A stretch of DNA of 64,000 nucleotides from a bacterium. GTDB taxonomy: Bacteria; Bacillota; Clostridia; Oscillospirales; Acutalibacteraceae. The stretch spans positions 1,811 to 65,810 of the forward strand of contig CAVKLD010000003.1 of NCBI GenBank assembly GCA_963657065.1, written 5' to 3'. The notes below the pieces were generated by a model, which was not told where the DNA came from, did no database searches, and was given only the letters and a program-made list of their open reading frames with translations. Of this stretch, positions 58,153 through 58,573 are shown piece by piece. Position 1 is the first letter of the stretch, and each line of letters starts with the position of its first letter. Both the position numbers and the translations under genes were made by a program.

Positions 58153-58185
58153 TAAAAAAACAAGACTTGTTTGTAAACAAGTCTC
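58153..58185 (-). terminator. leader (attenuator) terminator upstream of metQ
   Basis: On the minus strand: AGACTTGT-TTACAA-ACAAGTCT followed by TGTTTTTTT. It lies between the promoter and the metQ start. Confidence 0.6.
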
Positions 58186-58215
58186 CCGTTCGCTGCTTCA
58201 ATATTTGTCTTTCGG

Positions 58216-58332
58216 TTAAACCTTTTCGGGCATGGAAAAACCGACGACAACGCAGTTACGGGAGCGTGTCATCATGCACATGCACATTATTCCTGTTACG
58301 GCAGCGAATGTGTTCATCGTGTGTTTCTCCAT
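58216..58332 (-). CDS. candidate Met/Cys-rich leader peptide of the met operon
   Basis: MEKHTMNTFAAVTGIMCMCMMTRSRNCVVVGFSMPEKV. The second ATG (58317) is preceded by GGAG at good spacing. It sits between the promoter and the attenuator terminator. Below the track cutoff. Confidence 0.4.
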   Translation of the reverse strand: MEKHTMNTFAAVTGIMCMCMMTRSRNCVVVGFSMPEKV

Positions 58333-58352
58333 TTCCTTAAGTTTATGGCAAT

Positions 58353-58381
58353 ATGATAGCACACGCACATAGTGGTGTCAA
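58353..58381 (-). promoter_or_regulatory. candidate sigma-A promoter of the met operon
   Basis: On the minus strand: TTGACA (58381-58376), 17-nt spacer, TATCAT (58358-58353). Confidence 0.6.
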
Positions 58382-58573
58382 GACCGAATAATGCACAAAC
58401 ACGGTAGGTAAATAAAAAGATTTTCTGACGTTATTTACAAAAACAGGCAAATAAAACTGTGCAAAACACTGACGGACTGAAATGATGCAGCTTGTCAAGA
58501 CCGACACGGTTTGACTTCCGCCGCTTAAAAAAGATATCCTTATATACGCGGTACGGCCGTGCGGCATGTCAAT

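Follow-up and report, generated by a model that had tools for sequence, protein, structure and literature searches.

The metQ leader and its elements

The DNA analysed here is a stretch of 64,000 nucleotides (the window) from a bacterium of the family Acutalibacteraceae, order Oscillospirales (assembly GCA_963657065.1, contig CAVKLD010000003.1), and it carries on its minus strand the metQNI operon of a methionine importer. The first structural gene, metQ (57156..58091), encodes a substrate-binding lipoprotein of the MetQ/NlpA family (PF03180, E=1e-76), and its best NCBIfam matches are also MetQ/NlpA, under the curated cut-offs. It is followed by metN (56009..57022), which encodes an ABC ATPase with the C-terminal NIL domain that is typical of MetN (TIGR02314, 357 bits, below the cut-off of 499.7), and by metI (55309..56016), the permease gene (NF008049, 201.6 bits). 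The subject of this work is the leader of this operon, where a short open reading frame (ORF) rich in methionine and cysteine codons precedes an intrinsic terminator, and which probably acts as a transcription attenuator controlled by the translating ribosome.

All elements of the leader lie on the minus strand. A sigma-70-type promoter occupies 58353..58381, with TTGACA at 58381-58376, a 17-nt spacer and TATCAT at 58358-58353 in the context (TG)C-TATCAT; a consensus scan gives 11 of 12 matches plus the TG extension, and both the -35 and the -10 hexamers are kept in the alignment of all the leaders of the genus. The 5' untranslated region (5' UTR) is about 35 nt long (58318..58352) and contains the Shine-Dalgarno (SD) sequence GGAG at 58330-58327. 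Two segments of it, AAACTT (58344-58339) and GGAGAAAC (58330-58323), serve as the 5' strands of a clamp whose partner is the end of the ORF. The leader ORF has 33 codons followed by TAA (58216..58317; ATG at 58317, TAA at 58218-58216), its sequence is MNTFAAVTGIMCMCMMTRSRNCVVVGFSMPEKV, and its start lies 8 nt downstream of GGAG. A longer frame of 38 codons begins at the ATG at 58332 and ends at the same TAA; the 38-aa peptide contains 7 Met and 3 Cys. Codons 11-16 make up the regulatory run, ATG TGC ATG TGC ATG ATG (M C M C M M, 58270..58287), which lies within an I-M-C-M-C-M-M stretch at 58290-58270, and the ORF extends 17 codons beyond it.

The elements that follow overlap one another and are mutually exclusive in part. 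Hairpin 1:2, the putative anti-antiterminator (58243..58273), pairs GATGAC (58273-58268) with GTCGTC (58248-58243) and has additional inner GC/GC pairs. Region 2, the 5' strand of the antiterminator, is TGACACGCTCCCGTAACTGCG (58251..58271) and ends 33 nt before the stop codon; region 3, the 3' strand, is AGCAGCGAACGGGAGACTTGTT (58176..58197) and contains the entire 5' arm of the terminator. The intrinsic terminator (58154..58185; -10.3 kcal/mol) begins 30 nt past the stop codon of the leader ORF and is formed by a 10-bp stem, GAGACTTGTT/AACAAGTCTT (58185-58162), with the loop TACA, followed by G and T7; GTTTTTTT lies directly 3' of the stem and the T-run corresponds to 58160-58154. A preliminary description of this DNA, made from the sequence alone, had reported the TTGACA-17-TATCAT promoter, the 7 Met and 3 Cys residues with their run, and a stop codon at 58216 with a terminator about 30 nt downstream, and all these elements are present as it gave them.

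A lone promoter- or terminator-like site is not above chance in the surrounding 2.8-kb region, where 3 were found against 4.7 and 2.6 expected from shuffles. Because single sites are no better than chance, the case for the feature rests on conservation and not on consensus matches: the ORF, the codon run and the helices recur in the leaders of the genus, which places the feature above chance.

Conservation within the genus

Ten leaders were available from the genus, seven from species genomes and three from metagenome contigs, the latter representing a further strain of one of the species. BLAST with the leader gave five homologues, pattern scans gave one more species and the three metagenome contigs, and a search anchored on MetQ added a divergent subclade (G025, G022 and G026); the subclade of the window's own genome is called here the G000 subclade. 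Pattern scans of public genome and metagenome contigs returned only this same narrow clade, so that the wider distribution presented below comes from the MetQ-anchored searches. In the majority of the other species of this large genus, the leader of metQ is short and unstructured.

The 33-aa frame is retained in all ten leaders, with the same SD sequence, start position and stop; in one strain the start ATG is replaced by GTG. The ATG of the 38-aa frame lacks a ribosome-binding site, and the nearest relative has ACG instead of it. Thus, of the two products first proposed, of 38 and 33 aa, both can be read in the window and the 33-aa one is conserved. The only indel within the 102-nt ORF is an in-frame one of 6 nt, an ATGTGC unit, and none causes a frameshift; the flanks of the ORF bear indels of 1-5 nt. 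This unit is absent from the representative genome of one species (G019) and kept in the metagenome strains of the same species, and the codon run is otherwise invariant across the genus. In particular, T-G-I-M-C-M-C-M-M-T is invariant in the G000 subclade and so is (N)GMMCMCMMK in the other one. Outside the run the peptide is poorly conserved and substitutions are spread over all three codon positions; such free change is what a leader peptide should show, rather than a functional protein.

Competing folds of the leader RNA

The whole leader folds much better than its shuffles (z=-4.8). The fold of the terminated state, obtained with RNAalifold on six leaders of the genus, is composed of the terminator, the GAUGAC/GUCGUC hairpin, a hairpin over the start codon and a long-range pairing between the 5' UTR and the end of the ORF. 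In this last element, the clamp, AAACUU of the 5' UTR and the SD segment GGAGAAAC pair with GUUUUUCC and AGGUUU at the end of the ORF. In the alignment 94.7% of the cells are paired in the terminated-state fold, and slid controls reach 39-49%; ten double-sided pair changes were counted, a number reached by 2 of 500 shuffles. Both-sided changes affect 3 of 6 and 2 of 8 pairs of clamp helices 1 and 3, respectively, and the terminator helix (helix 9) is 100% paired in the 6 sequences, with 2 pairs altered on both sides. A clamp of this kind occurs in 8 of 8 folded leaders of the genus, and the G025 subclade builds it from different sequence, GAUACCG/CGGUAUC and UCGAAAAGG/CCUUUUUGA.

Hairpin 1:2 is formed in the window by GAUGAC/GUCGUC (-13.4 kcal/mol); its 5' arm is provided by the last two Met codons, and its loop holds the CUCCCGU..CUGC core. 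The hairpin of the last two Met codons thus supplies the 1:2 element that was missing from the preliminary description. Over eight leaders of the genus its energy ranges from -11 to -15 kcal/mol and the last Met codons are always the 5' arm. GAUGAC/GUCGUC is invariant within its subclade, and in the G025 subclade the hairpin stands in the same place as GATGAAGC/GCTTCGTC; the inner pairs also differ between subclades, GAUGAC/GUCGUC in one and GAUGAAGC/GCUUCGUC in the other.

The antiterminator competes with both the 1:2 hairpin and the terminator. A complementarity between CTCCCGT (58264-58258) within the ORF and ACGGGAG (58189-58183) had already been pointed out; this 7-nt match is present and is only a part of the antiterminator, a roughly 20-nt duplex (58271-58251 paired with 58197-58176; -21.0 kcal/mol, z=-2.8, p=0.008). 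Its start lies 2 nt short of the end of the last Met codon; it takes up 10 of the 10 nt of the terminator 5' arm, and it is therefore mutually exclusive with the terminator, as the check by folding confirmed. Since region 3 shifts its register in the MAFFT alignment, duplex energies of single sequences were used in place of column-wise covariation. Folded singly, the eight leaders of the genus gave antiterminators of -21 to -32 kcal/mol against terminators of -10 to -17, with z from -2.8 to -5.8 relative to shuffles; in 8 of 8 the start of the antiterminator is within 0-3 nt of the last Met codon, and the terminator 5' arm is covered in full. The two subclades build it from unrelated sequence, CUCCCGU..CUGC/GCAG..ACGGGAG in one and CCCGAAAAAUGC/GCAUUUUUCGGG in the other.

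When growing prefixes of the leader were folded, the 1:2 hairpin appeared first in both subclades, then the clamp between 5' UTR/SD and the end of the ORF, and then the antiterminator, once region 3 existed; the minimum free energy structure returned to clamp plus terminator in 3 of 5 cases once region 4 was present. The two states are predicted to be near in energy, and the leader would be bistable, as expected of a switch.

Distribution in the family and the order

The search for MetQ covered 120 genera of the family and 300 genomes of the order, and the 420-450 nt upstream were read. Met/Cys-rich ORFs of 21-45 codons preceded by an SD sequence were found before metQ in 11 further genera of the family (for example MKQISAATKNMMGMCMYTMCMFGH... 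and MANRRSMMSMMCMRMCRMCKLC...), and ORFs of the same kind in 20 of 25 metQ loci from six other families of the order. The expectation that the small ORF and its Met/Cys run would be conserved upstream of metQ in relatives is thus borne out in the genus, the family and the order. In the 12 leader ORFs designated type A, from 11 genera, Met accounts for 15.6% and Cys for 10.0% of the residues, compared with 2.2% and 2.0% in the long ORFs of the genome, that is, about 7-fold and 5-fold above the proteome level. Cys is encoded by both TGC and TGT. Across genera and families only the density of Met and Cys is kept, and their spacing and neighbours vary.

With one ORF taken per genus in the 11 genera, 61 ATG triplets lie in the reading frame and 7 and 3 in the alternative frames (p=7e-20). 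No other result speaks as strongly for the triplets being read as codons and not recognized as an RNA motif. A terminator lies 3' of the type-A ORF in 12 of 12 type-A loci; the stems of two of them (L034 and L044) were set by hand after the automatic search had found none. Complementarity between regions 2 and 3, generalised to the 12 type-A loci of the 11 genera, has a mean z of -1.2 and is significant in the window's genus and in one further locus, L038. As it is not significant in most of the others, the same helix geometry is not claimed for the whole family. Judged from these genomic comparisons, the putative device is widespread in the order and not peculiar to the window's genome.

A second small ORF (upstream ORF, uORF) is present between the terminator and metQ in many other genera (L033-L047, L081, L083, L087, L089, L100 and L101). 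Its C-terminus is strongly conserved, ..F-E-K-L-V-R-A-N-F-R-F-G-R-M-C/stop (..LVRANFRFGRMC*; nucleotides CGAATGTG), and some genera carry only this uORF. Its conservation at the level of the peptide suggests that it may be a nascent-peptide arrest element. A regular-expression scan of six-frame translations did not find the ..RANFRFGRMC uORF in the window or in the genome it comes from, and the window's genus appears to have lost it.

Known RNA families and genomic context

In Firmicutes, S-box (SAM-I, RF00162) riboswitches and Met T-boxes (RF00230) are the usual controls of metNPQ/metQNI. The absence of a SAM-I core and of a T-box from this leader, claimed at first by inspection, agrees with the covariance-model search: no Rfam family reached the gathering score over the leader in the window, and at E<=10 cmscan gave only noise within 58000-58620, such as snoRNA and miRNA models with E of 0.7-9. 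The known riboswitch, T-box and leader families were accordingly rejected as candidates for the metQ leader, none giving a covariance-model match. In particular, no aptamer core of a SAM riboswitch class (SAM-I/S-box and the other SAM families of Rfam) was matched in the leader, nor was the T-box model RF00230, and the leader has no specifier or T-box sequences. The same Rfam search identified the sole SAM-I riboswitch of the genome before metK (78.6 bits) and 11 T-boxes elsewhere in the genome; the organism therefore owns both systems and uses neither at metQ. Forty metQ loci of relatives, 20 of the same genus and 20 of other genera in the family, likewise yielded no riboswitch or T-box at gathering score before the gene. 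A Gut-1 RNA (RF01706, 61 bits) was observed near metQ in one genome of the same genus (L075, 1404-1483, minus strand).

A scan of the 2-Mb genome for Met/Cys density found no second leader of the same kind: the metQ leader ORF is the only short start-to-stop frame of such density in a gene leader, and the filter also passed 10 other windows, long ORFs or open stretches lacking a start, which were not inspected one by one. No MetE (PF01717), MetH activation (PF02965) or homocysteine S-methyltransferase (PF02574) domain was found in this metagenome-assembled genome (MAG), which is 96.8% complete. As no MetE or MetH domain was found, import is probably the only source of methionine for the organism, and this suggests that it is a methionine auxotroph. 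For such an organism, sensing the charging of tRNA instead of SAM makes sense. ARAGORN detected 26 tRNA genes in the MAG, too few to judge the copies of tRNA-Met and tRNA-Cys.

Neighbouring genes and other observations

A gene for an nrdG-type radical-SAM activase of the anaerobic ribonucleotide reductase (54607-55299, minus strand; TIGR02495, 209 bits, above the cut-off) begins 10 nt after metI, and the gene of this SAM-consuming radical enzyme may share a transcript with the methionine importer. Immediately upstream of the leader, also on the minus strand, there is a radical SAM/SPASM gene (58574-59665) which scores as an anaerobic sulfatase maturase and adjoins a sulfatase.

Two further sequence features were noticed next to the leader. 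One is a small hairpin, GGCA-ACA-TGCC (58108-58122, minus strand), which lies past the terminator, about 20 nt ahead of the SD sequence of metQ, and whose stem is retained in relatives with altered loops and flanks (CGGCAAAAAGCCG, CGGCTCAAAGCCG). Just upstream of the -35 box or across it (58385-58420, minus strand) lies a conserved ACCTAC(C/T)G motif or CCTA..TAGG inverted repeat, which is also present upstream of metQ leaders in L031, L032, L034-L036, L038, L039 and L049. It may be a candidate operator acting at the level of DNA, a second layer of control. In L032, L036 and L039 the gene ending directly upstream may encode a transcription regulator, as judged by eye from the C-terminal translation.

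Elsewhere in the window, a single ORF of 6562 codons (34539-54227, plus strand) with long repeats inside it and a signal-like segment at its N-terminus converges on the met operon and probably encodes a giant surface protein. A sub-threshold T-box match is located at about 31706-31932 on the plus strand (71 bits, the gathering score being 93), and a ribosomal protein L10 leader at 3273-3417 on the plus strand (63.7 bits).

A model of attenuation and its alternatives

Observed features of this leader are its sequence elements and their conservation, the excess of Met codons in frame, and the competing helices with their placement and stability. The reading that we favour, and consider likely, is that it is a ribosome-mediated (leader-peptide) transcription attenuator of metQNI that would read the charging of elongator tRNA-Met and of tRNA-Cys. 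An attenuation layout sensing Met, and possibly Cys, had been proposed from the first inspection of the sequence, and the lack of an Rfam match, the conservation of the ORF and the mutually exclusive folds all speak for it.

We infer that the ORF is translated, that the ribosome stalls in the run and that the leader folds in an order which makes transcription respond to Met and Cys supply, as follows. The transcript would begin about 35 nt before the ORF and the ribosome would load at GGAG. When Met-tRNA and Cys-tRNA are ample, the ribosome would pass codons 11-16 and region 2, the GAUGAC/GUCGUC hairpin would reform behind it (or form in untranslated RNA), and the 5' UTR/SD segment would pair with the end of the ORF; region 3, left free, would pair with region 4, so that the terminator would form and transcription would end ahead of metQ. 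When Met or Cys is in short supply, the ribosome would stall early in the run, with one of codons 11-14 in the A site. The consequences of such a stall can be estimated by assuming that the 3' edge of the ribosome lies about 12 nt past the first base of the A site, the established toeprint geometry. A stall at codons 12-14 would then cover 2-6 of the 6 nt in the GAUGAC arm, the CUCCCGU core staying free, a stall at codon 11 would leave both the arm and the core free, and a stall at codons 15-16 would start to cover the core. It is from this footprint geometry that melting of the 1:2 hairpin by the stalled ribosome is deduced. The early stall would remove the anti-antiterminator, and region 2 would capture region 3 before region 4 is made: the CUCCCGU...CUGC core would pair with the emerging GCAG...ACGGGAG-ACUUGUU and take up the 5' arm of the terminator, and RNA polymerase would read through into metQNI. 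With no stalling or no translation, the 1:2 hairpin and the clamp would form first and the terminator would follow. The Cys codons interleaved with the Met codons suggest that a shortage of either sulfur amino acid might open the importer.

Several points weigh against this scheme. The covariation rests on about 5-6 independent lineages, and the structure that was scored derives from the same six-sequence alignment. Complementarity between regions 2 and 3 is significant in few loci of other genera. The stop codon lies 33 nt past region 2, which is therefore left uncovered by a terminating ribosome, unlike in trpL. Moreover, a shortage of methionine should also limit the fMet-tRNA needed for initiation, and Johnson and co-workers are said to have found in 2020 that the coupling of transcription to translation is loose in Bacillus subtilis, which would make attenuation timed by the ribosome harder in Firmicutes. 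Equilibrium folding does not help either: with ribosome masking and the complete terminator, the terminator wins nearly everywhere, and before its 3' arm is made the antiterminator is favoured also in naked RNA and with a ribosome near the stop codon. For a prefix ending at the terminator 5' arm, antiterminator pairing is lost only while a ribosome (codons 12-23) covers region 2. The equilibrium scans neither prove nor contradict attenuation; since masking at equilibrium discriminates poorly, the decision of the switch must rest on the kinetics of folding.

This uneven behaviour of the equilibrium scans, in which the terminator does not depend cleanly on the position of the ribosome, would also be compatible with an ORF that senses Met and Cys codons and has its output elsewhere, in metQ translation, Rho access or mRNA decay, the hairpin and T-run being a constitutive, partial terminator. 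The complementarity of ORF and terminator arm, often no better than shuffles in other genera, and the conserved GGCA-ACA-TGCC hairpin between the terminator and the metQ SD sequence would fit such an arrangement, for which there is a precedent in the mycobacterial poly-Cys small ORFs (sORFs), which are reported to unmask a ribosome-binding site (bioRxiv 10.1101/834739). However, in 8 of 8 leaders of the genus the duplex right after the run covers exactly the 5' arm of the terminator, and it does so from different sequences in the two subclades; moreover, a terminator follows the type-A ORF in 12 of 12 loci, and neither placement is expected if the terminator is unregulated. We regard this explanation as unlikely, and a sensor based on arrest of the nascent peptide, of the TnaC/SpeFL type, as somewhat less likely still. 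Such a sensor would be stalled by a free ligand (methionine, SAM or a derivative) and not by uncharged tRNA. The blocks of the run, invariant within each subclade, could reflect selection on the peptide, and the same operons hold in other genera the second uORF with its strongly conserved, arrest-like peptide. Against it, nothing but the Met/Cys density is conserved across genera and families, no NCBIfam or Pfam family matches these peptides, and stalling by ligand would induce the importer in abundant methionine, a response of the wrong sign unless the geometry is inverted.

Two other explanations deny the ORF a role as a sensor. The leader could be a structured RNA, either a new riboswitch or a TRAP-like protein target on AUG repeats, whose ORF is translated incidentally; the fold with z=-4.8, the long-range helices with covariation and the AUGUGCAUG repeats, invariant at the nucleotide level in the genus, are in line with it. 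We nevertheless find it improbable, given that SD, start and stop are present in every lineage with no frameshifting indel, that ATG is distributed 61:7:3 by frame over 11 genera while Cys is encoded through both TGC and TGT, that no sequence outside the run is conserved between genera and hence there is no candidate aptamer core, and that no Rfam model matches the leader or the loci of relatives that were scanned. The least probable account, to which we give very little credence, is a small Met/Cys-rich protein with a function of its own, for example metal binding or service as the precursor of a peptide made on the ribosome and modified after translation (RiPP) for the adjoining radical SAM/SPASM enzyme. 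Peptides rich in Cys and Met can bind Cu or act as RiPP substrates, and the gene 58574-59665 is indeed immediately upstream. This enzyme scores, however, as an anaerobic sulfatase maturase beside a sulfatase, and the pairing of the two explains the gene without a small peptide; the ORF has a promoter of its own and accompanies metQ in every case, next to other, unrelated upstream genes in other genera, and what is conserved is its composition and not its sequence.

Within the attenuation model, a more elaborate version can be put forward only tentatively, and we doubt that it holds in full. The leader could be a bistable OR gate for Met and Cys operated by a single ribosome: the Met codons would be the arm of the anti-antiterminator, the end of the ORF would fold on the SD sequence so that only the pioneer ribosome is read, and in relatives the device would be stacked with the ..RANFRFGRMC* uORF as a two-stage translational sensor replacing S-box and T-box across Oscillospirales. 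If true, readout of the pioneer ribosome could make ribosome-timed attenuation workable in loosely coupled Firmicutes.

Relation to known systems and significance

Attenuation by the ribosome is the switch that textbooks describe for Trp, His, Leu, Thr, Phe and Ile/Val, and classical leader-peptide attenuators of amino acid operons are trpL, hisL, leuL, thrL, pheL and ilvL of E. coli and Salmonella. To our knowledge, methionine control is invariably presented in terms of MetJ, S-box/SAM riboswitches or T-boxes. Like the classical attenuators, the metQ leader has a short leader ORF preceded by an SD sequence, with a run of codons for the amino acid supplied by the operon, an intrinsic terminator, an antiterminator over its 5' arm just past the regulatory codons, and an upstream 1:2 hairpin. 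It differs from them in several respects: its codons are for Met (and Cys) and the operon is an importer, not a biosynthetic one; the ORF runs 17 codons past the run, and the stop codon does not put the ribosome on region 2; the Met codons form the arm of the anti-antiterminator and an extra helix ties the SD sequence to the end of the ORF; and it is found in an anaerobic gut Clostridium of the Oscillospirales. With the S-box and the Met T-box it shares its place as leader of an ABC importer for methionine and the premature intrinsic termination, and with the T-box also the reading of tRNA charging; it differs from both in giving no covariance-model match, in having no aptamer or specifier sequences and in the proposed sensing through a translated ORF.

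Among Firmicutes, leader peptides are exemplified by the His leader before hisS/hisZ in bacilli (PMC2965389) and by the Leu-rich attenuator peptide of the S. aureus ilv-leu operon (PMC5794164). In Actinobacteria, leader ORFs with Cys runs were predicted before cys/cbs operons (PMC1262725), and poly-Cys leaderless sORFs were shown experimentally to act as attenuators in the Cys ribulon of Mycobacterium smegmatis (bioRxiv 10.1101/834739). The actinobacterial Cys leaders are described as lacking an intrinsic terminator and as acting on translation or possibly through Rho (PMC1262725; 10.1101/834739). In both cases sulfur amino acid codons make a ribosome sensor for genes supplying sulfur amino acids. 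The mycobacterial sORFs are leaderless, contain only Cys and no terminator, and unmask a ribosome-binding site, whereas the metQ leader has a 35-nt 5' UTR with an SD sequence, is dominated by Met and would use a terminator and an antiterminator. A full-text search of the literature found no published leader-peptide attenuator for Met, in agreement with the early suggestion that this mode of control had not been described for methionine importers.

A leader built on Met codons is conceptually awkward, as translation of the sensor must itself begin with this amino acid; such leaders nevertheless precede the methionine importer in many gut Oscillospirales. If the proposal is true, it would add a missing amino acid to the repertoire of attenuators and would improve the annotation of hundreds of metQNI leaders now regarded as 'unregulated'. 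Abundant anaerobes of the gut may thus gauge their supply of sulfur amino acids by the ribosome rather than by SAM.

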